64,000 bases of DNA, filler included, from Jimgerdemannia flammicorona (GCA_003990765.1; 3 parts of 3 records of this genome joined end to end with filler, not necessarily neighbours in it); one strand, 5' to 3'; positions 154 through 46,400 are shown, counted from the whole stretch's first letter. The notes: generated by a model from the sequence alone, not told the origin. Numbers and translations: made by a program.

Positions 154-3100
154 GAAATGCAGATATGTTCCAAAAATACCTGCAGAAGTACAAGCAATTT
201 GGGGTCAAGAATCATCTGAGGAAGAAGAAACTTCTGACCAAGAAGTTCCTGAACAAGAAGTACTTAAGGAGGAAGAAGTCCCTGAACTCATTCCCTAGGA
301 TGACCCTTACTGGATACCACCTGAAGACAATGATCCTTGGAATACAGAAGAAGGATCCAGTATAATCACCATTATCCCCAAGAAAGAAACTCACTTAGAA
401 AAAGCTTTTTGGCTAGGAAGATGTCCACACCAAATAGTCTTCCCCTCTCCTCAAGACTACTGCTATCAGTGTCATTTACTAGACCAATAGGAGAGACAGA
501 ACCCCCAGAGACCAGAACCTCTGAACACACTTGTACAGTTGACTACCTTCCAAGAGGTTACCACCAAGTTGCAAAGCCAATTCAGGGGACAAGGCTTCTT
601 CACCCAGACAGAAATATATCCCTTATCTACTCTTCCACCCACTTACAATCAAGATGGATACTGATTCCCAAGACAACACCAGATCAATAATTGGGAACAT
701 CATTTCTGAACAATGGGATATTGTAACTATAGAAGACACTCAGACTGCTGAGACTGCAGGTATCAGAAGATTCATCTCAGTCATGATGTTGCAGTTTACA
801 CCTTGAAGAGAGAAGATAACCAAAGTCAGATCCAAAAAAGCCAGGCCCAAAAAAGCTAGGTCAAAAAGCCAGAAAAAAGGATCCTCAAGATCTATGATTT
901 AGGAGAAGACATCCTAGCTCTCATCAGATATACAATCCACCAAGGATAGGCAGAAGATGATACCAACTTCATGGAAGCCCTTGACCCTATAGGAAGAAGG
1001 AGAATCAACTATCTCCAAGACCCCTCTACTGGGGCCAGATGGCCACACCTCAACCTTAGAGCTTGGAGGATCTCTGCTAGTAGAGCTTCAGCCCTAGGAC
1101 AGCCTGAACTCAGCAAGGACATTGCCCTGGATACCCTGCTACATCCAAAGGCCTAACCCCCAACCAAAGCTCACCCAGAAGATGTAGGGTATGATCTTCA
1201 CAGTCTAGAGGACAAATCTATCAAGCCTGGAAAAACCTTCATGATCAGAACGGGATTAGCCATACAGCCACCTCAAGGTCTGGACTTGCCAGACAAGGAA
1301 TAACTGTGGAAGGAGAAACCATTGACCCAGGATATATAGGTGAAATCAAGGTTATCTTACACAATAGCAGTGCAGAATGGCACTGAATCATTAGAGGACA
1401 GAAGATTGCCCAAGCAGTCTTCATGAAGGTCAAGACCCCATAGTTACAAGAAGTCTCTGACCTAACTGAAGGAACAAGACAAGCTAAGGGATTTGGAAGT
1501 TCAGATAGGAAGGAAGTACATCTCCTTCAAGTCAACCATCTCAAGAGGAATGTTCCCCAGCAGGTGTACTGGCAACCAGTCAGACTGTACAAGAATCTTA
1601 TCTTGGAGCCTGGAGAACAAACAACCTTTGAAATCTTTGTGCCACCCGACCCCAGAAACCTTTTCTTTGAACCCAAGGAAGATATCCCCCACCTGGACAT
1701 AGAGGGACACACATTCCCTGACAAGATGAATCCAGCATACTCCCAAGCAATCAACCAAAGTTGGGAAACCATCATCTTGCTGAAAGGAACCATCATAGGA
1801 CATCTGGTGCCTTTTCTCAATTGAACTCATAGAGAAGTTTATGAACTAAACTTATCAGGAAATAGCAAAAGGTCCTAGAAGAAAGGAAAGGCACCTCTGC
1901 GATCCAGGAGACAGTGAAGCCTTCCACCAACATTGGTGAAGAATTGACACCTCAACAATAGTAACAACTAGTAGAACTTCTCAACAAATTTCAAGATATC
2001 TTCACCACTAATTATGGCAACCTGCCATACAATCCATCATATCACTACAGCATAAATACAAGAAATGTAACACCCATCTAGCAGAAACCCTATAGAATAC
2101 TCCATCACTTGAAAACATTCAAAAAGGAGCACATTCAAGAACTCTTAGACAATGGGGTCATCTGACCCTCTATCAGCCTCTGGGCCAGCCCTATACTTAT
2201 TGTACCAAAGAAAGGAGGATAGAGACTCTGTGTAGATTACAGAAAACTCGATTCAGTCACTGAAAAAGATGTCTATCCTCTGCCCAGAATCAATGACCTC
2301 TTGGATCAGTTACAAGATACCAGATACTTCAGCAGTATGGACCTCTTTGCAGGATTCTATGAGATCCCCATAGACCCCAAGGACATTCAAAAGACAGTCT
2401 TCCTTGCTCTAGAAAAACTGTTTGAATATCTCTGAATACCCTTTGGACTTTGCAATGCACTCCCCACCTTCCAGAGGATGATGAATTCAGTCTATGCCCT
2501 CTTGATCCACCACTGCCTGATTGTATATATGGATGATTCCAACATCTATTCAGCAAAATTCGAAGAACATCTGTACCACCTAGAGGAATTCTTCAAACTC
2601 ACCTGCAAGAACCACTTGAGACTGAATGCAAAGAAATGCTACTTTGGTAAACAGAAACTTGAATTTCTTAGATTCATAGTTTCAAAAGAAGAAACCCATG
2701 TAGACCCAAAGAAAACTGAGAAGATCAACAATTGGCCAGTACCCAAAACCCTGAAGGAAATACTATCATTCCTGATGCTAGTATCCTACTACAGAAGGTT
2801 TATTAAAGACTTTGCCCAAATTACTGCCCCAATCTGAATCCTTCTCAAGAAAGGAGTACTATTCAAATAGACAGAAATACAAGAAAAAGCCTTCAGAGAA
2901 CTCAAGAACTGTATGACTACAGCACCAATCCTTATGTGCCCCAATATACAGAAGCCATTCATCTTATATACAGATGCCTCTAAAGATGGCCTCAGGGCAG
3001 TTCTGGCCCAAGAAGGACCTGATCAACAGTACCATGTAATAGCTTATGCAAGCAGAGCTACCAATCAGCAGCAGATGAACTATGGTAGCACCAAACTGGA

Positions 3101-3318
3101 ATGTCTTGCAGTCATATGGGCAGTCACCTTGTTCAAGCATTACCTCATTGGCTCTGATTATAGATCTTGCAGCCCTCAAATGGCTATTCAACTGCAAGAG
3201 ACCCACTGGAATCCTAGTCCACTAGATCCTTATCCTTCAGGATTACAAAATCACCATCATTTATAAAGCAGGGAAAGCTCACAACAATGTTGATATACTT
3301 TCCCACCAGCCCCAATAA
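151..3318 (+). pseudogene. pol: Family A pol (linker-dUTPase-RT-RNase H), disrupted by stops and frameshifts
   Basis: WASPILIVPKKGG, LCVDYRKL, YMDD at 2526-2537, FILYTDAS, KLECLAVIWAV, HNNVDILS; frame ends at TAA 3316-3318. Confidence 0.92.
1130..1503 (+). pseudogene. dut: dUTPase domain of family A
   Basis: LHPKA*PPTKAHPEDVGYDL, TIDPGYIGEIKVILHN, GQKIAQAVF and a terminal GFGS, matching trimeric dUTPase motifs. Confidence 0.9.
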
Positions 3319-4394
3319 ATCAGAAGAAGGGTGTCCCAAGGAACTATACTCTAAAGGAAGCTCCTCAGACCATCAAAACACAAAAAGACCTTATCTGAAA
3401 AGAATATCAGAAAGCCCATCAGAGATAAGTAAATATAGAGGAAAAGTTGTGAACTACACACCAACATTGGCACAACCTCAGAATACAAGTCCAGGACATA
3501 CTCAAGAAATGTGACACCTATCAGAAGTACTAAGGAAAGAAGAACTACCATGCATCATTATAACTAATTATACCACTAGACAACATTTTTCAGAGATGGG
3601 GAGTAGATGTAATTAAACCTCTACCAGTTATATCAAGAAGAAACAAATATATTCTTATATTTGTAGAATATCTGACCAAGTGGCTCAAGGCTTTTCCAAT
3701 GGAAATTGCAGATGCCTTAACCATTGTAGGCCTCCTCTATGGACTCACACTCAGATATAGACCTCCAGAAGAACTTATCTCTGACTGAGGCACAGAATTC
3801 ATCAACAACATAATCACAAGTTATGCCCAAATTCACAAGATCTACCTCAAAAAGACTATATCATACTACTCTCAGACCAATGGCATGACAGAGAGAATGA
3901 ACCAGACCATTAAGAAAGGACTTGCCTAAGTCAATCCTACTAATTGGGACCACTACTTACCTGAGATCCTATGGGAAATTTAGAATACCCCTGCTGCCTC
4001 CACCAAACAAAAGCCATTCAAAATGATATTTGCCAAGAAAACCAGAACTACTGACCATGAGAATCTTGGAGACCTCCTCAAGAAGACAGAATAGTTATAT
4101 AATCAAGTCTGAGGACAGATTATCAAAGCCCAAGAAAGACAAAAGAAGTACTATAACCAAAAACAGAAGGATCAGGAGATCAAGATTGGAGATCAAGTAC
4201 TAGTTTGGAGAAGTATGATTGAAATGAATTTTTCTGCCAAATTGGAACCCAAATGGGAAGGACCTTATCTTGTATATAACATCAGAGGAACTAACAACTA
4301 TTTAAGAAGCATGGATGGACAATCTCTGAGAACACCAGTATACATCAATTACCTCAAACTATATTTTCCCCTATACCATAAGCCAAAGGATTGA
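3315..4394 (+). pseudogene. Family A integrase, in a different frame from RNase H
   Basis: Decayed HHCC zinc finger (..KKCDTYQK), FQRWGVDVI, ELISD*GTEF, QTNGMTERMNQTIK, KLEPKWEGPY. Confidence 0.9.
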
Positions 4395-4893
4395 TCAGCA
4401 CCTCCAGACATTGGTCCTCAGCTCCTTCCAGGCCCTACTAGTTTCTCTACCTCAATTCAGTCAAGCCAATGGAAACCCCCTTCAGAAGATCCAAGTTCAT
4501 CAAGAAAATCTCACCTTGGCCAGGCACCTACTACAAGTCCACCAGCTGCAGGCCTATTATGCAATTGGCAAACAATTGCAGAACCTTCCAACCCCAGAGT
4601 AGACTTATATCAGGAATACCACAGGTCTGACCAGGAGAGACACTACTACTACAGACAGACTATACACCATTTATAAATGAAATGTCACAGCTCTGATATA
4701 AGCACAGTTCTCTCTGAACAATATTCAAGAAATGAATCCTGTTACCTATTTGAGTATCATCAATTCTGTCAAAATTCTATTCTCCAAAGAAGAAGAAGAG
4801 CCCATAGAATAGAGTGATCCTAGTACAGACAATAAAGATGATGGAGCAGGTATAGATACAGAAGCAGCCTATGCTTATTGGAATAATGACTAA
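4378..4893 (+). pseudogene. Family A accessory ORF (~170 codons) between integrase and PPT
   Basis: Single frame with four internal stops consistent with C>T or G>A decay. Reads LQAYYAIGKQL...TTTDRLYTIY...EEEEPIE*SDPSTDNKDD. Probable start ATA (decayed ATG) overlaps the integrase end. Confidence 0.65.
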
Positions 4894-8860: not shown

Positions 8861-8864
8861 AGTG

Positions 8865-11368
8865 TCTATGTTACAGCAGATGGTACACAAGCTACCCCCC
8901 TTGGCAAAATCCAAGAAGTCCCTATCAAGATAGGAGGAGCTACCATTCCAGTAGACATGATTGTTATAAGCACCACCAACTATGACATCCTCATTGGCAA
9001 TCAATGGCTTCACAAGGCCAAGGCCATCATTGACCTCAATGCCCAGAAGATATAGATCAACTACAGAGGAAGAAAGGTACGAGTTTCTATCAATGTCTAT
9101 AAAGGAGTCCTGCCAGACATAGAGGAAGGAGATGAAGAAGACACAGAGATCTTTATGCACTCAGTGAACAAGAACAAGAACAAGACACCCAAGCTCACAG
9201 ATGAGCAGTGGTATAACAAGAACATTGATGGGTATACCCCTCAAGGAAGATGCCTCCATGGTACTAGAATGTACTGCTCTGAACACCTGAATGACTGCTG
9301 GTCCTGTATCAGTGAAGTCAGGAAAATCTGCCAACAGAAACACATGCAAGAAGCTGCTGAAGCAAAAAGGAAAGCTGAAGAAGATGACCAGCCCCCAGAG
9401 CTTCAAGCTGGCAGTGACAATGAGGAGAAACAAGAATCAGACATCACCCTCAAGGTCAAGAAGTTTCACCCTGAAGCCAAGATCCCAGAATACAAGACTG
9501 AAGGAGCCATAGGAATGGACCTTACTAGCATCCAAGATGCTACCCTCAAACCACAGACCACCACTCTACTTGGCACTGGAATTGGAGTCAAGTTGCCAGA
9601 AAACCATACTGGAATTATCAAGACTAGGAGCATTCTGGCCAAAAGTGAAATCTCAGTTGAAGGAGGAGTAATTGACCCTAATTACACTGGCGAGATTTTT
9701 CTCATAGTCAGAAATCACAACCACACCACCCCCTTCGAAGTCAAGAAGCATGACAGGATTGGCCAGATGCTGATCCACGAAATCAAGAAGCCCAAGATCA
9801 TAGAAGCCACTGAACTTATCAAGACTAAGAGAGGAGAACAAGGCTTTGGATCTACTGGAAGAGGAGTCTATACTGCCACCAAGATTACAGAACTTGAGTA
9901 CAAGAAAGGCAAGGACCAGAACAAGCACACATATACCATTGGAGAAAACTTTCCCCTGGAGGAACAACTTCTCAAGATCCTCTACCAGAACAAAGGAGTA
10001 CTTGCTACAGACTTTAGGGATATCCACAATCAAGAACCCAAGTACTATACTGGTGATACCAAGCCTATCTATCAGAAAGCCAGACCCATACCACCTGCCT
10101 ACAGAGAGTGGCTACAAGCCAAACTCAAGGAAATGAAAGAAGCCAGAATCATCAAGCAAGCTATCAGCCCCTGGGCCTCACCCATTGTCCTTGCCCCAAA
10201 GAAAGGAAGCAAGCCTGGAGAGTTTGCACCAAGACTCTACATTGACTACAGAAAACTCAATGCCATCACCAAGAAGGATAGGCAGCCCTTGCTGAATATT
10301 CAAGAAATCCTTACCATCCTTGGAAGTAAAGCCAAATACTACACCACCTTGGATCTGTTCTCAGGCTTCCATCAGATCGGTCTTACTCAAGATGCTAGTG
10401 AGAAATCAGCCTTCATCACACCTAATACCACCTATATCTATCTGCAAATGCCATTTGGAATGTGCAATGCCCTAGTAAGTTTTTAGCAAATGATGAACAG
10501 AGTCTTCAGTAATGAGATTGGAAAATGGCTCTTTGTCTATGTTGATGATGTGATCATCTTCAGCAACACTGCATGGGAATATATCAATCACATATAGCTA
10601 GCACTCAAGAGGCTCTAGGAGTATGGCCTCTACATCAAGCCTAAGAAATGTAAGTTTGTAGCTCAAGAAATCACCTACCTAGGACACCTCATCAACCAGA
10701 CTGGAATCCACACAGACCTCATGAAGATCGAGGCTGTTGCAGCCTACCCGAGATCCAGAACAACTATAGAAGTCCACACCTTCCTTGGACTGTCCAGCTA
10801 CTATAGAAGATTTATCAAAGGATACTCCAATATTGCAGTATCTATCTATGAGCTACTGAAGAAGGAGACCAAATTCAAATGGACCAAGGAGTGCCAAGAA
10901 ATCTTCAATGAACTCAAGATCAGGTTGACCCAAGCACCCATCCTCAGAAGACCAGACTGGAACCTAGAATTCATCCTGCAGACAGATGTGAGTGCTATAG
11001 GACTTGGAGCAGTCCTAGCTCAGAAGAAAGATGGACATGAATATGTCATCTCTTATGCAAGCCGAGGTACCTGTAGAGTAGAACAGAACTATGAGTCATG
11101 CAAGCTTGAATGCTTAGTGGTAGTTTGGGCAGTATACAAGTTCCACTACTACCTAGCCGGAAAACACTTCACCATTCAAATGGACTATTCTGCTCTTGTC
11201 TGGCTATTCTACACTCTGAACCCCAAAGGAATATATGCCAGATGGATCTACAGGCTGCAAGAGTATGACTGTACTGTCAAGCACTGCTCAGGAAAGACCA
11301 ACACCAATGCCGATGCACTCTCAAGGACACTCTGAAACACCCCCATCAAGACTACTCAACATGAATAA
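8865..11368 (+). pseudogene. pol: Family B pol: protease end, Cys/His linker, dUTPase (~9440-9860), RT, RNase H
   Basis: GAIGMDL, GGVIDPNYTGEI, RGEQGFGSTG, WASPIVLAPKK, YVDD at 10538, FILQTDVS, NADALSR. Confidence 0.95.
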
Positions 11369-12608
11369 GGAGCTATACTATGGATTAATCAGCTACCTTG
11401 GGCAGCAGAAGATGCCCAATCACCTCAAACCTTGGACAATCACCATCATCAACTGGACTTGGAAACAGTTTGAATTAGACAACACTATACTCAGAAAAGG
11501 AGGAAAGCTAGTAATACCTGAATATAAGAAGTATCATGTAATGAAGGAAGTACACAAGCAAGGACACTTAGGAGGAACCAACACATATAACAAGGCAAGA
11601 TGAACCATGTGGTGATCCAAGATGGAAGAAGACATGCGCCAATTTGTCAAAGGGTGTGACAAGTACCAAAAACAGAAACAAGATCAGCAAGACCAGGCAT
11701 CCGGATCATGAAGAATTGAGCCTATCTCCTTCCACCACATCGCAATGGATATCATTGGACCACTACCAGTAATACTATCAGAAAACCACTATATTATAGT
11801 TATTGTAGACCTCTTCACCAAATGGATAGAGGCAGGAGCACTACAAGAAGCCAATGCTCTCTCTATAGCTTACTTCCTACACTAAGAAATCATCTGCTGC
11901 TACAAGACACCAAAGCAAATCACAACAGACCACAGTACAGAATTTGTCAATGGATTCCACGAGATAATGTATCAGAAATACAAGATCCAGCACATCAAGA
12001 CCACTGCATACCACCCTGAAGGAAATGGACAGACAGAGAGAACCAATAAGACCCTCAAGAATATCCTGGCGAAGATCTCAGAGACATATGAGAATTGGGA
12101 TAACTATCTCCCAACTGCCCTCTCTATTCTATAAGACATATGGTCACAGAGCACACATTCTTCTCCAAGAGAGCTGCTCTTCAGAGAAGAAGATTCTGAT
12201 GGAACCTCAGCCACAAATCTAGATCTAACTTGGAGACAGGTTGATGCAGAAATCCAGAGACTACACTAAATCAGGAAGAAGGCTGAAGATTACATCACCA
12301 AGTTATAAGCACTGACAAGGAAGAATGCAGAAAAGAATCACAAGGCCCTAGAACCCATCTGAATCAGAGAAAAGGTTCTACTCTATTGAAATATGGTAGA
12401 AGCCTCATGGTTGCAAAAACTGGAGCCCAAATGGGAAGGACCCTTCTATGTGCAAGATATCAAGGGAACTACCTTCTAGCTTAGAAAAATCTCAGAGACC
12501 ATACTGTCTACCATGGTACATAGAAACAGACTCAAGAAGTATCATGAACCTATACAAGAGAAGCAAAACATGATGACTACCCATGAGGTTCTAGTCCATG
12601 AATCATAA
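11361..12608 (+). pseudogene. Family B integrase as a separate ORF starting MNKELYYG
   Basis: HKQGHLG...CDKYQK, HIAMDIIGPLP, TAYHPEGNGQTERTN, KLEPKWEGPF. Frame is +1 relative to RNase H. Confidence 0.9.
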
Positions 12609-12921
12609 CAGCATGTCCCATGACCAGCAGGCTATCTGTCTGGACCATTCTCTAAGGGATACAGCACTGGCAACTACTCATCCATGAGACTTTCGCAGTC
12701 AGAGGAGTTTGAACCATCAACTGATTGGTCAAGATCAGAATCAGGCCCTTGCTCTATATGAAAGGAGTAATCCTTCACTATTACACCAAAATACAAAGAG
12801 AAGACACCAGCTCATAAACATCAGTTTTTGACCCCTTGCCAGAGGTTATGGGATCAGCAAATTTTTCAGGACTGGACCAATGAATAAGGATGCTCAGGAA
12901 GATCCTTATTCAGGAGGAAGA

Positions 12922-14418
12922 TGTAATGGTGACCCCAGAATGATGACATCAGTACCGGAGACAGCCTTTCCTTACAAGCTACCAGATCAGAGCACAAGAA
13001 GATCCTACAGCATACGAGATGAACAATGATGACCAACTATGAGTCATTGTGACCACAGCACAAGCATCCTGAAGAATATAAAAGAAGGATCAAGGAACCA
13101 CAGTAGCAGCAACCAATAAGAACCACCAATCCCAAAATAGCTCAAAGACTTACCATAAACAAAATGCCTGCTACACACCAAACCTCAAGGTCAAGGAATC
13201 ACCAAGGTATCTCAGTTGAGGAAAGGATGTTCCAAGACATCAGAAGAGCCATGAGGACCTGCTCAAGAAGGACTCCTAGTGTCAACCTGGGTACTGCAGA
13301 CCCTTATCACTTCATTCTCTACTGCTGTGAAATGGAAACAAGGATCACCATTGCTACCAAATGCCTCCAAATGTGGCAGAAGTATGAAATAGGAAACCTC
13401 CTCTACTGGGAGTTCCCATAGGCCAGTACTCAAGAGCTACAAGATGCCACTCTCATGGATATATGTGAAACAAGGACAGCTAAGAAGATCCATCAGATCT
13501 TCAGACATGCACCATAGTCAATCTCCAACTTGGAGTATGTTAGAGTCTCAGACTTCAGAGATCTATCATCCTGCCATATCAATGCACTAGAAGCCAGGGT
13601 GGCTATAGAAGCCTGGTCCACTATCACCCTCAACAGTGAAGTAGAAGACTTCTGGCACTCTATCCTTCAGGACAACTCAGACCAATTTCTGCAAGGATTG
13701 ATCTCAGTATTCCAAGGCCCAAGCATCTGGGTTAGATCTCCCCAAGACCCCACATTTGTTCCTTATTTTGTGGAAGAGAACCTCATAGACTGGAGAGCTC
13801 CAGACCTTATTCCTGATTTCCCCACCACAGCTGAATGTGATGATGTCATCAGTGATGACATCATCCTATGCAATATACACAAAATGCATGACCTGTATGA
13901 TGAATTCATGGATCTCATCTCCTTCAGTGATGATGATGATGAAGCCCCCATGATTCTGAACTTTCTACTCTAAGTTCTTTATTATACTAGATAATACCAG
14001 TACCAGTATTCTGAGGTGATGCAAAATTGTTCCAGCACTGGCATTTTGATGTAATACTAAATAATGTCAGCATCCTGAACCTGTACAACCATCAGTACCA
14101 ACTCTAGAACTTAGTTGTTTTAGTTATTGGAATTTATATTTAGCTTTATATCTTAGCAACCATTGAATTATATTTTGTATAAATACCCCTCTTATTTCCT
14201 CTGGAATAAAGTCAGTCAATTCAGTACATTTAGTCAAGTGCAATATATACACTTCCTTGCAAGCAATCTAAGAGATAACAAGATAGTTAAAGATAAGAAG
14301 TTTGAGGACTATAAGACCTTGGGAAGGCACTCCAATAAGAACTTGCTTATAACAACTTGAGTTAGTCTAAGAGATACACCTTGGCATATTTGAAGGACTC
14401 AGTGACTACTATATGACA
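12922..14418 (+). repeat. Family B 3' LTR (~1.5 kb)
   Basis: TGTAA...TGACA ends, follows the PPT, three copies in the window. Confidence 0.93.
13164..13973 (+). pseudogene. LTR-encoded accessory ORF of family B (~269 codons)
   Basis: ORFs 13164-13421 and 13530-13973 share a frame. The internal stops are sense codons (Q, W) in the other LTR copies. Acidic C-terminus. Confidence 0.8.
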
Positions 14419-14649: not shown

Positions 14650-16159
14650 TGTCACATAGTAGTCACTGAGTCCTTCAAATATGCCAGATTCTCTTCAAGG
14701 TATATCTCTTAGACTAACTCAAGTTTGTTATAAGTAAGTTCTTATTGGAGTGCCTTCCCAAGGTCTTATAGTCCTCAAACTTCTTATCTTTAACTGTCTT
14801 GTTATCTCTTAGATTGTTTGCAAGGAAGTGTGTATAAGTGAAACTGGAACTGACTTTATTTCAGAGGAAATAAGAGAGGTATTTATACAAAATATAATTC
14901 AATGATTGCTAAGATATAAAGCTAAATATAAATTCCAATAACTAAAACTACTAAGTTCCAGGGTCAGCACTGATGGTTGTATAGGTTCAGGATGCTGGTA
15001 TAATTCAGTGTCACATCAGAATACTGGTGCTGGAATAATTTTGCATCACCTCAGAATGCCAGTACTGGCATTATCTGATGTTACTCAAAATACTAGTGCT
15101 GGCATTATTCAGTGTAACAAAGAACTTAGAGCAGAAAGTTTAGGATCATGGGGGCTTCATCATTATCATCATCACTGAAGGAGATGAGATCTGCGAATTC
15201 ATCATTTTCACATGCCTCAATATCATATGGGATGACATCATTACTGATGATGCCATCACATTTAGTGGGGAAATTGAGAGCTCTCCAATCTATGAGGTTC
15301 TCTTCCACAAAATAAGAGACAAATGTGGGGTCTTGGGGAGATCTAATCTGGATGCTTGGGCCTTGGAATACTGAGATCAACCTTTGTAGGAATTGGTCTG
15401 GGTTGTCCTGGAGAATGGGATATCAGAAGTCTTCTACTTCATCACTATTGAGGGTGATAGTGGACTGGGCTTCTGTAGCCACCCTGGCTTCTAGTGTATT
15501 AATACAGCAGGATGACAGATCTCTGAAATCTGAGACTCTAACATACTCTAAGTTGGGGATCAACCATGGTGCATGCCTGAAGATCTGATGGATCTTCTTA
15601 GCTATTCTTGTCTTGCATATATCCATGGGAGTGGCATCTTGTAGCTCTTGAGGGCTGGCCTGTGGAAACTCCCAGCAGAGGAGGTTTCCTATTTCATACT
15701 TCTGCCACATTTAGAGGCATTCGGTAGCAATGGTGATCCTTATTTCTATTTCACGGTAATAGAGAATAAAGTGATAGGGATCTGTAGTACCCAGGTTGAC
15801 ACTAGGAGTCCTTCTTGAGTAGGTCCTCATGGCTCTTCTGATGTCTTAGAACATCCTTTCCTCAACTGAGATGCCTTGGTGATTCCTTGACCTTGAGATT
15901 TGGCAGGCAGCAGGCATTTCATTTGTAGTAAGTCTTTGAGCTATTTTGGGGTTGGCAGTTCTTGTTAGTTGTTGCTACTGTAGTTCCTTGATCCTTCTTT
16001 TATATTCCTCAAGATGCTTGTGCTGTGGTCACAATGACTCACAGTTAGTCATCATTGCTCATCTCATATGCCATATGATCTTCTTGTGCTCTGATCTGGT
16101 GGCTTGCAAGGAAAGGCTGTCTTCTGTGCTGATGTCATCATTCTGGAGTCACTGTTACA
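14650..16159 (-). repeat. Family B solo LTR with 4-bp TSD CTAT
   Basis: Reverse complement of the B LTR; CTAT on both flanks; Copia sequence on both sides. Confidence 0.92.
15126..15917 (-). pseudogene. LTR-encoded accessory ORF, solo-LTR copy
   Basis: MWQKYEIGNLL...RIAKKIHQIFRHAPW and ...DDDNDEAPMILNFLL in the ORF track. Confidence 0.8.
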
Positions 16160-17565: not shown

Positions 17566-18011
17566 TGTGATGGTACAGCCAAATTTGGAAGAAGGAAATA
17601 GGGAATAGACATTTGATCACACCCAGTCCCAAAGTAGTATAGCCTTATAGTTAGCAGTTCTTGATTTCGACATTGTCTAAATTCTTAGACATTATCCAAA
17701 TCAAATGTCCTAATTTAGTATAGTATTTAGACATTGTCCAAATATTTTGACAAAGTCCAAATGACTCATTTATTACTTAGCTACCCTCTCATAGCTAGCA
17801 AACTTATATAAATAACCCAGTATCTTGGAGTGAATAAACCTCAGATTGAAAGTGTTAGAAAAGAACAAATATACCAATAAAAGGACCTTCGGGATTACCT
17901 CTTTAAACACATTTGGCCTCAAGGAACTACTGACTCTGGGAGTCAAGAAGACAAGAATTCAAGATAAAGAAATCTGACATACTTGCCCATCTTAGCATCT
18001 GCTATGTTATA
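17566..18011 (+). repeat. Family E 5' LTR (~446 bp)
   Basis: TGTGA start where Copia homology stops. Ends TGTTATA (decayed TGTTACA) just before the PBS. TATA and AATAAA at ~17807-17837. Confidence 0.75.
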
Positions 18012-18014
18012 ACT

Positions 18015-18032
18015 TGGTGCCCATTGGCTGGT
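18015..18032 (+). other. Primer-binding site, family E (TGGTGCCCATTGGCTGG)
   Basis: TGG 3 nt after the LTR end; near-identical motif at 58931. tRNA identity not determined. Confidence 0.75.
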
Positions 18033-18086
18033 GATTCAAGATGAATCCCTCACTTTCAAGCTGAACAATGAACAACTGTAACCAGA

Positions 18087-20172
18087 ATGCACACAACACA
18101 ATCAGACAGAATGGATATGAGACCCCCCATATTCCATGGATATATGTCAGATGAATCAATCATCACCTTCATTGATGATTTCGAGCAGTATGCTACTGTA
18201 AGGACCTTAAGTGCAGCACAACAAGTAGCCCTACTCCCTGTAAGCCTCCAAGGCCCAGTAAGAACCGCATTTACTGCAGCCAATATACAAGCAGCCAATG
18301 ATCCAGCAAGAATCATAGCTTTCGAGACCTGGCTCCAAGCAACCTACTATACAGATGAAATCAAACAAGCACTCAAAGATCAACTGAATACTATCTGCCA
18401 AGGAATGTCTGAAGACCCAAACACATTCTATACAAGAATCCGACATCAAATAGTCCTTACTGACTACCCCAATGTAGTTCAAGACCAAGTGGCCAAGAAT
18501 ACCTTTATGAAAGACATTCACCAAGAAATCGCTTTAGCCATTCGATCTACCCCAACACCACTGGACCTGGGACAGAAGGTTACCTACACCCAAAGATACT
18601 GGACTGCCAGACACCCTCAAGGCCATACAATGGAAAGAATAACTGGAGTAAAAATCAAACAAGCACCAAGAGTCACCAATACAATCCCAGCTACCATAGT
18701 CAACCGAAATACACAACCACAACCACAAGACCAGAGAAGGGTCGACCCAATGGAGGAACTGGCCAAACAGTTTGCAGAAATGACTGCACACCTCAGCGAT
18801 ATAGTCAAAGAGTTCAAGAAGAAGCCAGTATAGAAGTTTGCTGCTACAAATACAAGACGATCAATAACATGCTATAACTGTAGAGAAGAAGGCCACTATG
18901 CCTCCGAATACATGACAGAAACCAAGCGAAAGGCCAATCCAAGCAATGTAACCAGGAACCGTGAACAAGCAAACACTATCACCTTCGAGGAGATTGGAGA
19001 ATCCAAGGAAGAAAGGGAGGAATGGGAAGCTTACTCTGCTACCTCAAGTAAGAAGGATGTCCGATCCAGTCCCTACAAAAGACCTCCAGGCAGACCTCCT
19101 AAGAAGGCCCAGACACAGACAAAACAACTAGAAACAGTCATCGAAAAAGAAATTCAGCAGAGCGAAGCTGACCAAGATATGAAGCTAGAACAAGATGCTG
19201 AGCTGAAGCAAGCAGTAGAAGATATTATTCGAAATACTACCCCATCAAGTGAAGGGAAGAAGGAGCAGAAACTGCGCAAGAGCAAGACCTACAAGTATGA
19301 TATCTTCAAGGACCTCAAGGACCAAAAGGTCAATGCAACCTTTGGTCAGCTGGCTGAAATCCCAATATTCAGACAACAAATGAGGACAGGAATCTCAGAC
19401 ATCAGCAAAGACTAAGATTACAGAATAATCAAAGCCAACAATGCACAAGAAGATTCAGATAAAGAGAGTGAAGATAACTGGAAAACATCAGCCTATGCTA
19501 CCTGCCAGATTGAGGACCGAGTCTTTGAAGCCATCATTGATACAGGAGCAGAAGGATGTCTCATTACCAAGAAAGCAGTAGACCACCTAGGTTGGGAGAT
19601 AGAAGAAGCTACCAAATTGGTGTTTATCACAGCTGATGGGACACGAGCAACATCCTTGGGAAAAATTTGGGATGTACCAATCAAGTTCGGCAAAGCCACT
19701 ATCCCTGTGGATGTTATTGTCACCAATGTAACCAACTACAATATCCTCATCAGCAACCAGTGGCTTCACAAAGCCAAGGCCATGATCGACCTCAGTATAC
19801 AGAAGATACAGATCATCTACTGGGGAAAGAAGATCAGAATTCCCATCAATGTCCACAAAGGAGTCTGCCCCAAGATGGAGGAAGACCAAAAAGAAGAAGC
19901 CTACATGGTTACTACAAAGAAAGGAAAAGGCAAGCAATTGACAGAGGAAGAATGGTATACAAGAATCGCAGATAGATACACCCCACTAGGAAGGTGCCCA
20001 CATGGTGAAAGAATGTACTGTGCCCAGCACTTGGATCACTGCTACTCTTGTATCATTGAGGTGAAGAAGATCACCAACAAGCCAAAGAAGAACCAGGAGG
20101 AACTAGAAGATGGACCACCAGAGTTATTGGATGACAATGATAATGAGGATAAAGATATCAAAGTCAAGATAC
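18087..20172 (+). pseudogene. gag: Family E gag-protease in one frame
   Basis: ORFs at 18087, 18912 and 19617 share a frame. Zinc knuckle CYNCREEGHYASEY; protease IIDTGA. Confidence 0.9.
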
Positions 20173-21411
20173 TGTGACAAGCCAAGACGTACCACCCGAA
20201 TCATATCTCAACCAGATGACACGAACAAAATGACGTGAACACTCAGCTTAGTAACCAGTAACTCTTGCTGTGGAAAACTGTATAAATAGCCAGACATACC
20301 AGAAAGGGTCTGTTTACCTGTACAGACTCTGTACACCTGCCATAAGTAGCAGATCTATAGTTAGCCACATAGTAACCAGGTAGCAACCAACTTGTATAAA
20401 TTACCCCAGAGGCGAGAGTGAATAAAACCTCAGTCTGAATTGAAGTGCAAACCAAAGAAGCCTCTAAAGATTGAGCAATTGGTCCCCTTATTCCCACTCC
20501 GGTCCACTTTCCGATACAAAGCTGATTTTGCCACCTAAGTTCAAGGAAGAACTTCGCCGCCTTTGGAATTATTGTTATTGGTTCGCTTGCCAGATAAGCA
20601 TGAAGATTTCCGTCACCTTTCTTGCCATAAGCCAGTCTTTCTGATGCAACTTCGCAGTGGAGCCAGTCTATGATGTAACCCCGTGCAAACGAAGCCAGTC
20701 TTTGACGTAACTTGCCAAGAATCTGAGTTATTCACCATTTCTAAGTTATCTGCCGTATTTCCAGTTAAGCCACCATTTTCAAGAAACCCGCCAAATCCAC
20801 ATCGTCCGCCACTTTCGAGTTATCTACATTCCCAGAAAACCCATGCCATCCGAGTAGTATTCCCAGTTGAAGCTGAAACCGTGACATCCAAGTTATTCGT
20901 CATTCCCAGTGAGCCTAGGAAGAATCTGCGCCATACAATTCCCAGTGAGCCAAATCGGGTTATCAGCCAGTTCGCCGCGTTCCCAGTTGACCCGTATAAG
21001 GAACCCGCTGCGCTACACAGAAATCGTCGCACTACACAGAGATCATCACGCAGAAATCGCATAAGGAGAACCGCTAAATTACCAGACCGTCACGCACAGA
21101 GATTGTCGCACTATACAAGACCATCACCCAGAAATCGCATACTTTTGGAGATCACCTTGCTACACAAAATTGTGCCATTCCCAGTTGACCCAAGAAGGAA
21201 AAGACATACAAATCGCCGCTACACCCAGAGAACCGTCCCAATAAGGAAACCGCTCGCAGATATCCAGCTTTGACTATTATACCACTAAACACCAAGGACC
21301 TCAGGAATCTTAGAACATTTTGTTGCTTTTTGACAAAGTAACTGGGGGCTCAAGCCAAACTACATCAACCCCCAACCTTGTAATTTGCCTCCATTGAGCC
21401 GGCACGTTACA
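20173..21411 (+). repeat. Family A 5' LTR (CpG-retaining)
   Basis: TGTGA...TTACA ends, followed by a PBS, homologous to 4933-6635. Confidence 0.92.
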
Positions 21412-36289: not shown

Positions 36290-37590
36290 AGTCTCTAGCA
36301 ATTAGCTATCGGAATCCAGTCTATTCTTGTCCCTACTGTCTAAATATATGTTATGTGTTTTGTATTATATAAATAGTAGCAGAGAGAATGGTTTAATTAT
36401 GTGACTCTCTGGTATTCATGGCAGATAAGATATTCTTGTGCTTTGATAGTCATTGGAACTTAATTTAGAGTGTAATTTCTCAGTACATCCTTTTTTCAGT
36501 TTATTGGAGCTGATAGAAAAGTATATCAACATTGTTATAAACTTTGTCTACTTTGTAGTTAATATTGATTTTGTAATCCTGTGGAATAAGGATCCAATAG
36601 ATAATAATTCTGAGAGATTTGTATAGTTGGATAGCTATTTGAGAGCAGTATGATCAGTTATTAAAGTAAAACTTTTTCTTATATAATAGTGCTTCAACAG
36701 AGTGACTATCCATATAACTGCAGAGTATTCTAACTTAGTGCTACCATAGTTGGCTTATTGATAATTAGTAGCTTGGCTTAGTAAGCTATTATATAGTATT
36801 ACTAATTAGGTATATCTTAGACTAAGACTGCTCTAAGACTCTCTTTAGAGATATCTATATATAAGATAAATGGTCTCTATAGATTAGATTATTCAAGGAC
36901 TAGTATTATAGTTATTCAGCACTTGAGTTCTCTGAAGACTAGTTCTTGTAGTTTTATCTACTTATAGAGTACTTCTTTCTAGAGAAGTATTTGAATTAGA
37001 GTGGTAATTTAGACAAAGTTCTTGATAAATCCTCTATAGTAGGATACTAGTATGAGAAATAATAATATTTTCTTCAGAGTCTTAGATACTAACCAGTTGT
37101 AAATTTTCTCAGTTTTCATTAGGTATGTATAAGTTTCTTCTTTAGAAATAATAAATTCAAGAAATTTAAGTTTCTGGTTTCCAAAGTAGTATTTCTTACC
37201 ATTGAGCCTTAGATAGTTCTTATGGATAAATTGAAAGAATTCTTCTAGATAGTGTAGGTATTCTTTGATATTTTCTGAATTTATATTAGAATTATCTATA
37301 TATATAATCTGGTAGTAGTAGATCAGTGGGACATAGACTAAGTTCATCATTTTCTAGAAGGTTGGAGTGTATTACAGAGTTTAAAGAGCATTTAGAGATA
37401 TTCAAACAATTTTCCTAGAACAAAAAAGACTGTTTTTTAAATATTCTTGAGATTTATAGAAATCTTATGGAATTTTGCAAAATTATCCATATTACTGAAA
37501 TATCTAGTATCCTGTAATTAGTCTAGGAGATTATCAATTCTAGGCAAAGGGAAAGTATCTTTTTCTGTTACTGAGTTGAACTTCATATAA
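36290..37590 (-). pseudogene. pol: Decayed family A RT/RNase H fragment
   Basis: ORF 37009-37350 is homologous to 2478-2837. Confidence 0.85.
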
Positions 37591-37595
37591 TATAT

Positions 37596-37729
37596 TGTAA
37601 TGTGTCTGGCTCAATGGAGACAAATTACAAGGTTGGGGGTTGATGTAGTTTGGCTTGAGCCCCCAGTTACTTTGTCAAAAAGCAACAAAATGTTCTAAGA
37701 TTCCTGAGATCCTTGGTGTTTAGTGGTAT

Positions 37730-37899: not shown

Positions 37900-40800
37900 C
37901 TCTCCCCACTCTGCCTACAGATTTGTTCTACCAAATGACGCCTTCAACCCCCCTTCAACCTCCAACCCAGCCACCAGCCCATCAAGGTGTCTTCCATAAG
38001 GCTATGCCACCTCATCAGCCTGACCTTAGAGCCAAGTTTCCTCCTATCCTCAAAAACAAATAGCCAGTGACTGGCCAGCCCCACCCAAATGGCCAAAGTC
38101 CACCCTAACATTAGCCATTCCTTCCCCACCCCCCTATCCAGTCTACCCCTTAAATCCTCCCAATGCCCCTGCACATCAGCTCTCCTGCACACTACTCCCA
38201 GATGATCCCCAATGTTCTGCCAAAAGGTACTAAGTACCTCACACTCTCCTAGTCAATGTTCAGGCATCTGTATATATCCCCCTTCCTGCCCCACATTATA
38301 ACATTCTTCACAGTCAAAGCAGTCTCCCTCGATAAGGTGACCAGAGCGGAAGTTGAGCATGACATTTCACCTCAGCACATGCCACCAGACCACCCAGTAC
38401 TTCGGCAGCAACCACCTCCTCACCTTGGCACTCCAGGCCCATATGCTATGTCAGTCCTACTCCTCACCGATTCCTACACCCTGCCAACTACTAGGCCACA
38501 GATCCTGGCCTGGTCCCCATTGGTATTCGATCCCATCACCAATGTCAAGCTCAAGTAAGGGAATGCCACCTAGTAACACTCAGTCCCATCACCACATCAC
38601 TGGGTCCCAAGCCTCCTCCCCTTCATTTCCTTGCCACCTAATCACAATGCGGTATGCTCCCTCTACCACTCCCCACCAGAAGTCTTTGTACCATAATTGT
38701 CCAGAGTTCTGAAGGCCCACAAGCGCTAGGAGATCACCTGTCGAACCTCTTAGAGAGGACCTCATCTCCCAGACCTTCTGCAGTAGGGGAACCCAACCAT
38801 CCCCTCTCAACTCCACTGCTCTCTTCAGCCACCAAGCTCTTAAGCAGTGCAGCCTCTTAGGAAAGTCGACCAGCCCAAGTCCCCCACTTGCCACTGGTAA
38901 GAACAAGACCTCCTAGTTGATCTGACTCTGTCTTCCAGGCCAGATCCACCCCTTGGCCAGCTTTATCAATCACTTCATCACCCAAGCTGAGAAGTCCAGA
39001 TGATAAGCCAGATGCCACACCTTCAGCAGCCAATAGACATTCAAAATGGAAACATGTCCTGCCAGAGACAATTGACAGCCTCCCCTGCTCCACAGGGCCT
39101 CCTCCCAAATGCCAACCCACTGCTCCCACCAAAGTCTGGGCAGAACCGACCCATATACTGACAGATAGATACCCAAGTACCATACTGCCTCACCAGCAGG
39201 GACAATTGTACCAATAATCTCCCCACCTACTAGACTATTGCCTAACACCATTGTTTCACACTTATGCCAATTAAGCCTAGCCCCAGAGTTTGTCTCATAC
39301 CACTCCACTGTCTCCTTGAGCTCCTCAACATCTGCAACTAATCCCAGACCGACTACCATGTCATCTGCAAATGCCCCTACTTTCCACCTAATGCCAAAGA
39401 TAGAGAGCCCTACTATCTTCCACCTGATTCTGTCCATGAAGGGCTCCAGAGACAAAGTGTACAAAATGGAGGACAGTGGGTCCACTTGGGGCACCCCCCT
39501 ACCCAGGGGAAATGCTACCCCTCTATGTCCATTACACATGAGTGCCACCCTACTCCCTTCCAGTAGGCTGACCATGGCAGTCCTGAACTGTTGCAGGACC
39601 CCAATCCTGTCCAAAACTTTTGCCAACCAGACCCATCACACTCTGTCATAGGCCTTCTCCTGGTCCAAAAAGACCAGATGCCCATCCAGTCCACTGGCTC
39701 ATGCCCCTTCAATAATGCCATGTACCCATGCTGTACCATCTCTGATGAGCCTGCCTCCAACAAAGCCCCACTGCTCCTCACCCAAGACTTACTGGGCCAT
39801 CTTTTGCAACCTTGTGACCACCACTTTAGTAATCAGCTTTCTGTCCATATCCAGTAGCATAATTGGCCTCCAGTTCTTCCAGTCCTCTCAGCTTCCTTTG
39901 TTCTTATAAAGCAATGTCACTAACCCTAGATCCTGTTCTCCCACCCATCTCCCTATCTGTAGAACCCAATTATACAGTACCATCATCTCTCCCACTATCC
40001 TAGGGACTCCCACCATCCTTTTCCAGAAGTCCCAGGGCAGACCATCCTCTCCAGGTGCTGTACCCAAGGTTGTCGCAACAAGAACCTGGTGGATCTCCTC
40101 CTCTAGCACTGGCAGTACTAAGTCATCCAACCCAGCTACTTGAGTAGGGTACCAATCCTCCAAACCTTGATCAATATCCTCAGCACCTGCCCCATCTTCC
40201 TCCTCACTCCACAATTCACTCCAATGCTCCTTTAACAATCCAAGAATATCTTGTACCCTATGTACCAATGAACCATCAGCATTAAGCACCCCCTCCCATC
40301 TTTGCTGTAACCTTCTCACCTGAAGAGCCCTTGTAAGAAACTTCGAGGGCCGCTCTCCTTCCTCCAGCCCCTGCCAATGAAGCCATACTGCCAGACCCTA
40401 GACCCTTGCCTCTTCCTCATTCTACAGCACCTGTTGCAGTTCAGCCACCTCCATTTATAGCCTTATCGATTGCCAGTTCTCCTCTCCCTCCAATGTTGCC
40501 AGTCTTGCCCAGTCCTCCAAGAGTCTAGATAATCTATGTGATGCCCACCACACCCACCACTTTCTCTGTCTCCCTGCCTCCATACCAGCCTCACTCCAGA
40601 AGGCCCTGGTCATCTCCTTCATCCTCATCCACCAAATATCAACTGTTACACCTCCCTGCCTCCAACACTCCACCTGCATTTGAATGACTTCGGCCCATTT
40701 ACCCCACAGGATCTTATCATCTAGAAGGGAGGAATTGAGATGCCAATGTCCAGGCTCATCCCCACTCCCCCCAAAATGTCCCTGCCCCAAAAGCCCCCAA

Positions 40801-41479
40801 TGATCTGACCAAGGACACCATTCCACCTCCAGTGACTTCCAAACATCCAGGCCCCAGCAGCTGGCTGATAGAATCCAATCAATCCTCATCCCCAGGCCCC
40901 TGGCCCAGTGCATATACACTCTCCTATTCCCCCAACATTCCCTACCCACATCCACCAGAGCACTAAGTCTTTTCACTTCCTCCCATACTGCCAGTCCTCC
41001 ACTCCACCCCACAGCACCTCATCCCCTATCAGTTCTATCCTCAATATGTCTCAGACCATATTGAAGTCCCTGCCGAGCACATCTACCCCAACCTCCACAA
41101 GAATCCCACTCTCCTGTAGGCCTGTCACCCAATTCACCTGCTCACCCCATACTGCAGGGCAGTAACAGGAGCCCACCATGACTGGCTCCCAACCTGCACA
41201 TATCCACTCTCCCCAGACCAATCTATCCCCCCAGTTCTGCACATCCTGTATATCCCCTCTGCCCTTCTGTACCAGAATTCCAACCTTGCCCTTCCAAACT
41301 GCCTCACCTCCCCACTCCTTCGTCCATTCTAGTCTATCCAAGTCATCCTCACACCTGACATCCTGCAAGAGGAAGAGATCAGCCTCCAATCCCTTCAGCC
41401 AAGTAAAAATGTTCCTACATCAATAAGAGCCCTGTAACCCATTCATGTTCAAAGAAAAAATATTGGTTGTACTATTCAT
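37900..41479 (-). pseudogene. LINE ORF2 (APE endonuclease and reverse transcriptase)
   Basis: IFSLNMNGL, DLFLLQD, DFNMV, RIDWIL, WSDH, APGEDGL, RGVPQVDPLS, FADD, YLGI, GGLGLVD. Confidence 0.92.
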
Positions 41480-42400
41480 AAGAGAAATTATATAGTTTCA
41501 GATGTGACCCCTGCTGCTCCATATCCACTTCCTCCTGTGCCCTATCCAGGTTGTGCTCAGCAATAGCTTCTGCTTCCTCAGTCCTCTTAGCCTCCAATTC
41601 AGCCAGGATTTCTGCCATCTCCCCATCCTCCTTTTCCTCAAACTCCTTGCAGTACTCCAAACAAGCCTCCTGCCAGAGCTGCAGTCCATGCCTCTTAGTC
41701 CAACAGTGGGCAGCCCACTCACCTGCCACAACTGCCAGAGCAGCTTCCCTCTCCTTATCTATCTCATACCCCTCCTCCTCCAAGTACACCACCAGAATTT
41801 CTGCCATCAATGCTGCCACCATTCCATCTTCTTGCAGGATCCTTGATCAATGCTCATTGCTCATCACTCGGAGGTCGACTTCCCCCAGCTCTTCTGCTGC
41901 CAAGTTGTTCATCATCTGGCATACCCAGAACAAGTTTCCCACCTCCTTCCCTCCTGGGGTCGCTGGCCTCCCTCCATCCACCATTGTAGTATCCACCCCT
42001 ACACTCACTGACTCATTCCATCCCTCCTCTGGGACATCCACCAATTCCTCTTCCCCAGTCGCCTCTACCAATTTCCCCTTCTCTACATTCAGGACTCCAA
42101 AGTGCACCTGCTGAGCACTGTGCATCAGCACATCCTCCATCACTCTACCTTTCACTGCTGGACCCCTTCTGATAAGGGCAGAGGGAGAAGGTGAATCCTC
42201 CCAGGTTTCCTCCCAAACCTCCAGTATGCCATACTCATATAGATTCTTGCTCGGCACCTTCATGGCCTCCACCTGCCCACCCTCCTCATTCCATCCACTA
42301 CCAGCAGCCCAGACACTCACCTCTGCACCTCTAGCAGTTGCACTATTGCTTGCCTTCCTCATCACCTCTGCCCCCATTTTCACCAACAATTTCCTCTACC
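41472..42400 (-). pseudogene. LINE ORF1 C-terminal part
   Basis: ORFs 41847-42389 and 41472-41822 share a frame; acidic and helical; stop overlaps the ORF2 ATG. Confidence 0.7.
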
Positions 42401-43468: not shown

Positions 43469-46400
43469 GTAGGTATATTTCTTGAAGTATAGTAGGTAGA
43501 TTTGTTTTTTGCTTTTGGATTTAATTTTAGATTAAGGTTTATTCACTCTTGTCTTTGGGGTATTTTATACAGTTGTAACTATCTGATTGTTATGTGGCTA
43601 ATTATAGATTGCTATTTATGAGGAAGGAGTACTTTTACTATCAGGATAACATTTATTATCAGATATTAGAGTAATATTTATTATCAGTAATGTCTTCTTC
43701 TTTAGCTATTTGGGTTATTTATATAAGTTGATATAGTAGAGTAATTCTGGTTGCCTAGTATATTAGATATGATATATAGCTAAATTATAGTGATTAATTC
43801 AGATAGTGATTTGGTATATTTTTACTGATTTATCACATCAGCTTTCACTAAAGGATGATCTGCCCTCAGACTGTTCTTTAGTTATTATTTAATATTTATA
43901 GGCATTTTCTACATCTATATTAGTATTATTATTATCTTTTATATTTAGATTACTTTATTTTAGTTCTGGGGGGTTTTTTTTTATTCTTTAGGAAATAGGA
44001 TATCTATTTGTTAAAGAATACTTTAGAAGGTCATTTCATTTATCTGATAGATATTAATTAGGTGAAAATAGACTTATATATAATAAATTTTTTTACATTT
44101 TATCTATATAAGATATAGAGTCTCTTTGTGGTTTAAGCATCTTAGAGAGTTATGTCAGCTAGTCTTCTTATGTATAGTTGTTTTTATAATAGTTATCTAT
44201 TAATTATAGAAGGTCTATAGATAGTGGATCTATAGCAATCTCTAGATAATAATAAGGTTTTTTTAGTACTTTTGAATTAATTATATTAGAGTTCCTTCAA
44301 GTTAGTAGAACTGAGATATATAAGAAAATAAACAGAGCTTTGAAGAAGCTAAGAATGAGAGTCTGGAGATACTGGTCAATTCTCTGAATTATTGTATAGA
44401 GATAGTTGATATATATTAGAGTTCTTAGGATATATCTATCTATATCTCTTATATAGATACTAATTTCTTTAATATTATATATAAAGTAAGATTCTTTTTA
44501 TTTAAGCTTCAGTTTGATAGCAAAGTTTATTTTAATCATACTTTTTCAGACTAGTACTTAATCTTCAATCTTGATCTTTTAGTTCTTTTGCCTCTGATCA
44601 TAGTATTTCTATTGCTTTTTCTAAGCCTTAATTTCTGAGCTTGAACTTAATTATATGTATAATTGTTCTGCCTTTTTGAGAAAATCTCCAAGATTCTCAT
44701 AATCAGCAGTTCTGGCTTTCTTGAGATAGTAGAGATATTCTGAATTTTCTATAGAATTTCAAATAAGTAGAGATTTTAGTTAGTAGAATTGACTTGAACA
44801 ATTTCTTTCTTAATGGTCTAATTCATTTATTCTATCATACTATTAGTTTGAAAATAGTATAATATAGTTTATTTGAGATAGATCTTATATTATATTATTG
44901 ATAAATTCTGTATCTTAGTTAGAAATAAGTTCTTATAAAGATCTATATCTAAGTATGAGACTATATATAGAGAAGGTCTACAATAGTCAAGATGTTAACA
45001 ATTTCTATTGGAAAAGTTTCAGACTATTTAGTTAGATATTTTACAAATACTAGAATATATTTATTTCTTCTTAATATAACTGATAAGAGTCTAATAATAT
45101 CTACTCTCTATCTCTAAAAGATATTATCTAATGGTATAATTAGTTATAGTAGTATTTAATGGTTCTTCTTCTCTTAGTACTTCTGATAGATATTATATTT
45201 CTTAAGTATATCTCTGACTTATATTCTGAGGTTTAACTAATATTAGTATATTATTCATTACTTTTCTTCTATATTTATCTGTCTTTGGTGAGCTTTCTAA
45301 TAATATTTTCAGATAAGGTCTTCTTATATTTTAGTAGTCATGAAAGCTTCTTTTTTCTTAGTATATCCTTCTTTTGATTTATTAGAGTTAGTAAAAAATA
45401 ATAAGCTTTTTTACTTTATAAATAATAGTGATTTTATAATTCTATAAGATAAAGATCTAGTAAATAAGAATTCTAATAGATTTCTTATAATTGAATAGCT
45501 ATTTAAGAGCAGTATAGTCAGTTATTAGAGGAAATCTTTTTCTGATAAGCTAATACTTGAACAGAGTAACTGTTCATATAACTGTAAGATATTTTAGTTT
45601 AGTATTATTATAATTGGCTTACTGCTAATTGGTGGCTTGACTTATATAAGCTATCATATAGTATGTACTACTGGTCAGATCCTTCTTAGGCTAGAACTGC
45701 TCTAAGTCTATCTTTAGAAGTATTTATATATAAGATAAATGGCTTCTATAGGTTGGGCTGCATAAGAATCAGTATTATATTATATAGTACTTAAGTTTTT
45801 TGAAAGTTAGTTTTTGTAGTTTCATCTATTTATATGATACTTCTTTCTTGAGAAAAGTTCAGATTAGAATAGCAATTTGAGTAAAATTCTTGATAAATCT
45901 TCTATAGTAAGATATTAATATAAAAAATAATAGTATTTTCTTTTAGATCTTGAATACTGGCCAGTTGTTGATTTTCTCAGTTTTCTTTAGATCTGTATAG
46001 ATTCTTTCTTTTGAAACTATGAATTTAAGAAATTTATGTTTCTGTTTTCCAAAGTAGAATTTCTTGGTATTGAGTCTCAGGTGGTTTTTGTAGATGAGCT
46101 GAAAGAATTCTTTTAGGTAGTATAGATATTCTTTAAAATTTACTAAATAGATATTAGAATTATCTATATATATAATTAGACAGTAGTGAATTAGTGAGCT
46201 AGAGACTGGGTTCATCATTCTCTAAAAGATAGAAGTAAATTACAGAGTTTAAAGAATATTAGAAGATATTTAAATAATTTTTCTAAGATAAGAAAAGCTG
46301 TTTTCTGAATATCTTTTAAGTCTATAGAGATTTTGTAAAATCTTGCAAAAAGATCTATATGCTGAAGTATCTGATATCTTGTAATTGATCTAAGAGGTCA

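Follow-up and report, generated by a model that had tools for sequence, protein, structure and literature searches.

A separate integrase reading frame beside the RNase H stop codon in a clade of gypsy-type LTR retrotransposons

Two element copies in the window (the whole 64,000-nucleotide stretch of DNA analysed here) belong to a gypsy-type lineage of LTR retrotransposons in which the integrase is encoded by an ORF of its own, with an ATG that overlaps or adjoins the stop codon of a long upstream ORF ending in RNase H. The split integrase is a real trait of the clade: the layout, the fixed Met, the adjoining stop and the use of both frames recur across it. Termination-reinitiation on full-length RNA is the likeliest route to the integrase, with a probability of roughly 0.68 as judged from sequence. 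Fungal gypsy elements normally encode integrase within Pol, according to the accessible part of PMC3248453. The split layout is apparently unpublished; no description of a separate integrase ORF in LTR elements was found in the literature, and supplements, Repbase Reports and subscription papers (Phanerochaete and Tuber dUTPase elements) lay outside this search and may bear on it.

The RNase H/integrase junction reads ATGAATAA in both window copies, at 11361-11368 in copy 1 and 63066-63073 in copy 2. Frame 2 encodes RNase H (Pfam RT_RNaseH) and frame 3, which is +1 to it, encodes integrase (Pfam Integrase_H2C2 and rve). The earlier note placed the end of the RNase H frame at TAA 11366-11368 and 63071-63073, overlapped by the integrase ATG in +1, and both statements are correct. 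It also took the identity of the two junctions as an argument against random decay, and the presence of the same ATGAATAA in the relative L001 strengthens that argument. The copies are 91% alike over 8864-12295 and 60557-64000, and because the sole indel between them over 9901-12295 is an in-frame one of 12 nt at ~10049, the +1 offset is common to both. The additional TGA that copy 1 carries at 11333 is ascribed to decay, since copy 2 and L001 read CGA there and the CpG o/e of the window copies is 0.07-0.09. Copy 2 carries 13 in-frame stops in its single frame (59048-63070), more than 90% of the differences between LTR copies are transitions, and both element copies are dead. Presumably, this CpG decay fits arbuscular mycorrhizal fungi. 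In a comparison with contigs of four sequencing runs at 80% likeness, none of the 12 indel rows listed, of 38, falls within 11330-11400; one low-depth DNA contig in the same comparison joins 11247 to 11361; neither observation was counted as evidence.

Table 1 Features of the window elements and junctions of related loci. Positions without a locus name refer to the window.
Feature	Position	Strand	Remarks
Copy 1 ORF1 remnant (PR, dUTPase, RT, RNase H)	8864-11368	+	Frame 2; Gag-bearing 5' part missing; decay stops
Copy 1 start/stop overlap ATGAATAA	11361-11368	+	Integrase ATG 11361; ORF1 stop TAA 11366-11368
Copy 1 integrase ORF	11361-12608	+	Frame 3; HHCC region, D129/D190/E226 motifs, GPF
Polypurine tract-like AGGAGGAAGA	12912-12921	+	Adjoins 3' LTR
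Copy 1 3' LTR	12922-14418	+	TG...CA, about 1.5 kb
Accessory ORF3-family frame within LTR	13026-13973	+	Putative extent
Solo LTR, same family	14650-16159	-	ATAG on both flanks; possible 4-bp target duplication
Old relic, family E/L001 type	57169-57415	+	RNase H end and integrase start brought in frame by 10-nt deletion
Copy 2 5' LTR	57416-58927	+	Followed by TGG-starting PBS-like sequence; inserted in old relic
Copy 2 ORF1 (Gag-CCHC-PR-dUTPase-RT-RNase H)	59048-63073	+	One frame; TAA 63071-63073
Copy 2 integrase ORF	63066-64000	+	Starts at overlapping ATG 63066; runs off window end
ORF3 of L001	L001:5795-6256
ORF3 of L003	L003:5960-6652
ORF3 of L005	L005:1022-1483
ORF3 of L006	L006:2998-3454
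L001 junction			ATGAATAA
L002 junction			ATGGATCTAG
L003, L013 junctions			ATGA
L004, L007 junctions			TAATG
L006 junction			ATGAACACTGA
L008 junction			ATGAATAG
L012 junction			TGATCATG

The window is repeat-rich, eukaryote-like DNA, and its split elements have the hallmarks of Ty3/Gypsy (Metaviridae): LTRs with TG...CA ends, the polypurine tract-like AGGAGGAAGA, a putative TGG-starting PBS, the domain order Gag-PR-RT-RH-IN, and an HHCC plus DDE integrase with GPF/Y. The intact homolog P0084 shows the last in full (HEQGH, CDKC, D129/D190/E226, GPF), and the copy 1 integrase stop, TAA 12606-12608, marks the same end as in the intact homologs P0084 and P0085. Their integrase does not lie within Pol; they are nevertheless termed gypsy-type, because that position is the usual layout rather than a taxonomic criterion. 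The integrase ends shortly past GPF, with no Chromo match for P0001 and none listed among 78 homologs. The three LTR copies run TGTAA...TGACA and are 89-90% alike. With stops read as X, Pfam identifies zf-CCHC, aspartyl protease, dUTPase, RVT_1 and RT_RNaseH in the copy 2 frame 59048-63070. The earlier view that Gag, PR and the downstream domains share one frame thus stands for copy 2, as for L001, L002 and L003, and only in part for the family E copy (17900-20200), where Gag and PR are in one frame that stops short of dUTPase. Family E is 83.6% identical to L001 over 2.27 kb.

Several further features of the window were recorded. A Cys/His-rich segment, GRCPHG..YC..H...C..C, lies between PR and dUTPase at 9200-9330 and 60900-61030, as well as in family E, and is a possible second zinc-binding module. 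Family A comprises dUTPase-bearing gypsy copies at 1100-4700, 44334-48482 (minus) and 36405-37610 (minus); its integrase branches basally to the split clade, and its junctions (~3315, ~45400, ~36500) are too decayed to score, the one at ~3315 having the integrase in frame -1 with CAATAAA at the stop. A weak ORF3-like frame is seen in family A near 4450-4700. A decayed RT-bearing element at 38970-42395 (minus), with an RVT_1 match at 38970-39635, has no relation to the split integrase.

Related loci were drawn from metagenome and viral contigs: 90 in all, 85 of them reaching 150 bits or more against the integrase profile, of which 61 include the RNase H end. That the integrase is a separate ORF, as the earlier note had proposed, is borne out by the junction across relatives, all nine in-clade metagenome loci that span it being split with Met at the same position. 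Five junction types occur in the clade at 36-85% identity. A full single ORF1 is present in L001, L002 (1623 aa) and L003 (1564 aa). L003 is intact, with a CpG o/e of 0.92, an open 1564-aa ORF1 and a 418-aa integrase, and it is split. An earlier TGA at the RNase H motif of L004 was taken as decay, and decay stops occur elsewhere in L001 and L002. Outside the clade, RNase H and integrase share one frame in 43 of 52 loci (35 open, 8 with stops); the remaining nine are shifted and comprise L021 with a clean ATGA, L028, L040 and L043 with spacers of 95-374 nt, and five decay-like or ambiguous cases. Scans of viral contigs and prokaryote genomes yielded distant relatives only. In a quick integrase tree built from 75 chosen rows, the window, the nine loci and stand-alone proteins fall together in a 28-row clade (SH-aLRT 97) with zero fused rows, and a quick RT-RH tree groups its 8 in-clade rows at 90; both trees consist mostly of unnamed rows and lack an outgroup.

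Since L021 and the spacer group are placed outside the split clade, integrase may have split off more than once. The clean ATGA of L021 lies at 1862-1865; both trees place L021 beside L023, a fused element, and L021 is a possible independent split. In the spacer group (L028, L040:1075-1356, L043:3856-4230) a separate integrase ORF follows the spacer, which is repeat-like in L040 and L043, and long overlapping downstream ORFs have no Pfam hits. Integrase ORFs with no RNase H upstream, preceded instead by a short uncharacterised ORF, were seen at L030:569, L033:449 and L035:729; in L035 the two ORFs overlap by TAATG, and L030 and L035 have a small, faintly ORF3-like ORF after the integrase. By their sequence, these three are perhaps Ginger-like DNA transposons.

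The spacing at the junction is tight. In all 11 junctions (nine loci and two window copies) the stop is found between -8 and +5 nt of the integrase ATG, the RNase H tail is 11-29 codons long and the RNase H motif is 32-89 nt upstream of the ATG; all 11 also show the TURBS-type arrangement of a stop and a start within about 20 nt and out of frame. Under a random-stop model the chance is 0.05-0.15 per junction, with a product of 10^-9.7 over 9 rows, copy 2 and L001 being left out as close kin; this product is a rough guide, because related loci are treated as independent and selection for compactness is ignored. With the window family entered as a single row, four rows have the integrase in +1 and six in -1, and the use of both frames with an invariant Met argues against a single frameshift.

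A search with the copy 1 integrase retrieved 78 proteins of 231-737 aa. In 55 the alignment begins at query residue 1, and every one of these has Met at that position, in 50 as its own first residue, although these N-termini are gene-caller output and callers favour ATG; the remaining 23 are truncated or distant. Since long proteins were excluded from this search, they were searched separately with a 47-sequence alignment. The 120 longer hits included no in-clade fused polyprotein, the best scoring 309 bits against 329 for the lowest of the 55, which is weak evidence of absence; the nearest named matches are gypsy-type polyproteins. Integrase ORFs extended to about 540-570 aa were noted in L007 (1838-3469), P0044, P0048, P0057 and P0058, the L007 extension overlapping ORF3 by about 400 nt.

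One sequence in the window reads in frame across the junction. The earlier note had offered the old fragment at ~57300-57350 as grounds for doubting the split, and the fragment is indeed in frame; what accounts for this is a deletion. Compared with copy 1, copy 2 and L001, the relic (~57170-57415) lacks 10 nt after the RNase H end, and it has ATA at the ATG position, 74% A+T and zero CpG. Its only blastn match is L001, not copy 1, and L001 has the split ATGAATAA junction. Given the deletion, the decay and a split nearest match, the relic fails to refute the split. From this one copy, a fused subfamily may be conceived.

Downstream of the integrase lies a conserved ORF3 of 135-246 aa. Its ATG mostly falls within the last conserved codons of the integrase, 1 to 404 nt ahead of the integrase stop; it is within 8 nt of that stop in one of 13 loci, a count that omits L008 and L012, where no matching start was found. 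This loose spacing indicates that the tight stop-start arrangement is specific to the RNase H-integrase junction and no general habit of these genomes. A chain of ATGA overlaps 3' of the integrase in copy 1 (12620, 12940, 13026) was considered as further coupling and dropped, because CpG decay makes such motifs and intact relatives do not have it. One frame is nearly open in all three window LTR copies (9-12 stops versus 14-35 in other frames) and has intact homologs at 61-83% identity. An ORF3 profile built without these homologs matches them in a search of a small local database (E values 1e-6 to 0.03), which suggests that the LTR frame is likely a member of the ORF3 family. The predicted fold of L001 ORF3 is an all-helical domain (pLDDT 88.7), for which Foldseek found nothing at E<=0.001 in PDB or BFVD and VIA gave a best Z of 4.8; ORF3 gave no Pfam hit under E 0.05, and its Atlas neighbours are unnamed.

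No cis-element common to the whole clade was found among the 11 junctions. The TURBS upstream motif 1, UGGGA, is complementary to 18S rRNA. Within 100 nt upstream it occurs in 0 of 11 junctions; another complement, to the host's own 18S, may exist. A hairpin was found in two of the ten junctions folded, those of L004 (419-449) and L007 (1799-1833), and is absent from the window family and six others. It is a bulged hairpin of 13 bp, a few bases before TAATG and in the same register in both, with z of -4.5 and -3.8, and ranks first in stability among the 50-nt stretches scanned on each contig (223 windows for L004, 404 for L007). Five of its 13 pairs show two-sided (compensatory) changes; this pair count rests on four sequences, two of which (the related L012 and L013) break the hairpin, and 7 of 500 shuffles reach it. 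A simple pseudoknot search was positive in the same two of 11 junctions only. The tail before the junction is unstructured and G-poor in the window family, and G content is in the lowest 3% in 6 of 11 tails. Eight of the 11 junctions have CCCC in the 40 nt upstream, a post hoc observation that may reflect proline codons.

By termination-reinitiation, ribosomes would complete ORF1 (Gag-PR-dUTPase-RT-RNase H) at its stop, keep hold of the RNA and, at a low rate, begin again at the integrase AUG close by, yielding free integrase at a fraction of the level of the Gag-RT polyprotein. Since Gag and RT share one ORF without a frameshift, reinitiation would be the main control of enzyme ratio. The cis-signals might differ by sublineage, with the strong upstream hairpin serving in L004 and L007 and the G-poor unstructured tail in the window family. 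The length of ORF1 weighs against this reading, reinitiation after 1300-1600 codons being demanding. In LTR retrotransposons and most retroviruses integrase enters the particle as part of Pol, and a clade with free integrase needs another route of translation and packaging. The free enzyme would require its own path to the cDNA, either by binding RNA and so entering particles, as foamy-virus Pol does, or by a later encounter with cDNA.

Of the three routes listed in the earlier note, frameshifting is disfavoured, and translation from a separate RNA stays in contention behind termination-reinitiation. In the former case the usual RNase H-integrase fusion would be made by programmed frameshifting, which would settle integrase packaging, and in each of the 11 junctions the integrase frame is indeed open for 30-141 nt before the ATG, with XXXYYYZ heptamers in three of them. 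It would have to be +1 in some rows and -1 in others, no slippery site is common and none is present in the window family, the Met is invariant, and the stop precedes the ATG in L004, L007 and L012; we regard it as highly improbable. Integrase made from its own spliced or subgenomic mRNA, with the overlap reflecting compact packing only, is unlikely but a more serious competitor. Foamy-virus Pol offers a precedent (PMC7828637), the ORF3s of LTR elements are typically spliced (PMC5408684, both as far as their accessible text goes), and a fixed Met is compatible with it, as is A at -3 in 6 of 11 junctions. It leaves unexplained why an RNase H tail of varying length should end beside the ATG. Moreover, no acceptor is shared: six of the 11 junctions have a YAG in the 60 nt upstream, its position varying, and it is absent from the window copies, L001, L006 and L008, L006 having no AG whatever in those 60 nt; upstream ATGs are present within 150 nt in 10 of 11. 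ORF3, likely a spliced gene, shows the loose spacing expected of splicing, and the integrase does not.

Internal initiation at the integrase AUG, IRES-like and independent of termination, appears marginally less probable even than frameshifting. The G-poor unstructured tails or the upstream hairpin could recruit ribosomes, but such entry would not need a stop beside the AUG, and a conserved structure is absent. Decay or misassembly of dead copies as the origin of the split has a negligible probability. The heavy CpG decay of the window copies and the single in-frame relic would fit it, yet the same junction occurs in both copies and in L001, five junction types exist, and intact relatives such as L003 are split, which refutes it.

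By sequence the lineage is probably fungal. Mucoromycota is the most frequent phylum in two Atlas clusters of integrase-length look-alikes, in which 10 and 11 members have a recorded phylum; the cluster ranked first is rotifer, and most listed holders of related sequence are soil metagenomes. A broader picture, to which we give even odds, is that of an unnamed, widespread fungal LTR lineage in which free integrase made by reinitiation replaces the gag/pol frameshift, as the first LTR case, with a hairpin signal in one sublineage and an all-helical ORF3 that perhaps aids reinitiation or integrase packaging. The ten natural stop-start junctions in five geometries provide material for studying how fungi might reinitiate behind a very long ORF. 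Annotation is likely to mislabel such elements, either as broken or as stand-alone transposases; among the integrase homologs, several JGI names read 'transposase InsO family'.

The comparison with known systems follows the accessible portions of the cited papers. PosPlaTy3-5 of Postia placenta (PMC2864245) and the bdelloid Juno, Vesta and TelKA (PMC5408684) are known elements with a dUTPase placed between PR and RT. These resemble the window lineage in their TG...CA LTRs, CCHC Gag, PR-dUTPase-RT-RH-IN order, GPF and extra ORF3, but keep integrase in Pol, whereas here it has its own ATG; the comparison is by description, not phylogeny. Troyka shares a gypsy-like domain order and a mostly single Gag-Pol ORF, and identity with it was rejected, since its CG...CG termini, absence of GPF/Y, fused integrase and restriction to animals (PMC12440569) do not match the elements described here.

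Coupling through AUGA or UAAUG is described for caliciviruses, influenza B, victoriviruses, the hypovirus CHV1 (reinitiation 2.5-4.4%) and the non-LTR element SART1 (PMC10275272, PMC5972666, PMC2699510). The retrotransposon examples in the accessible text of PMC10275272 and PMC5972666 are non-LTR elements only, and the retrotransposon coverage in that of PMC5009743 concerns gag-pol frameshifting. The TURBS systems of caliciviruses and influenza B likewise place stop and start no more than 20 nt apart, out of frame, and are Kozak-tolerant (PMC10275272). A difference is UGGGA, which is missing from all 11 junctions here. SART1 (UAAUG between ORF1 and ORF2) and LINE-1 ORF2 also use stop-start coupling in a retrotransposon for an enzyme ORF; SART1, however, is non-LTR, passes from ORF1 to a whole RT ORF and relies on downstream structure, while the sole strong shared structure of the window lineage is upstream (PMC5972666). 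Like the window lineage, the victorivirus HvV190S and CHV1 (UAAUG) have an overlapping or adjacent stop-start after a long ORF and no calicivirus motif 1 (PMC5972666, PMC10275272, PMC2699510); upstream sequence or structure plays a role in them, as it may here, and their host is fungal (PMC5972666, PMC10275272), which we infer for the window lineage. Those are RNA viruses passing from capsid or protease to polymerase, whereas the present case is an LTR element passing from RNase H to integrase in five geometries, known from sequence alone. Foamy viruses offer the parallel of an enzyme made apart from Gag and packaged by another route; there the whole Pol comes from a spliced RNA, whereas here integrase alone is separate and Gag is fused to RT (PMC7828637).
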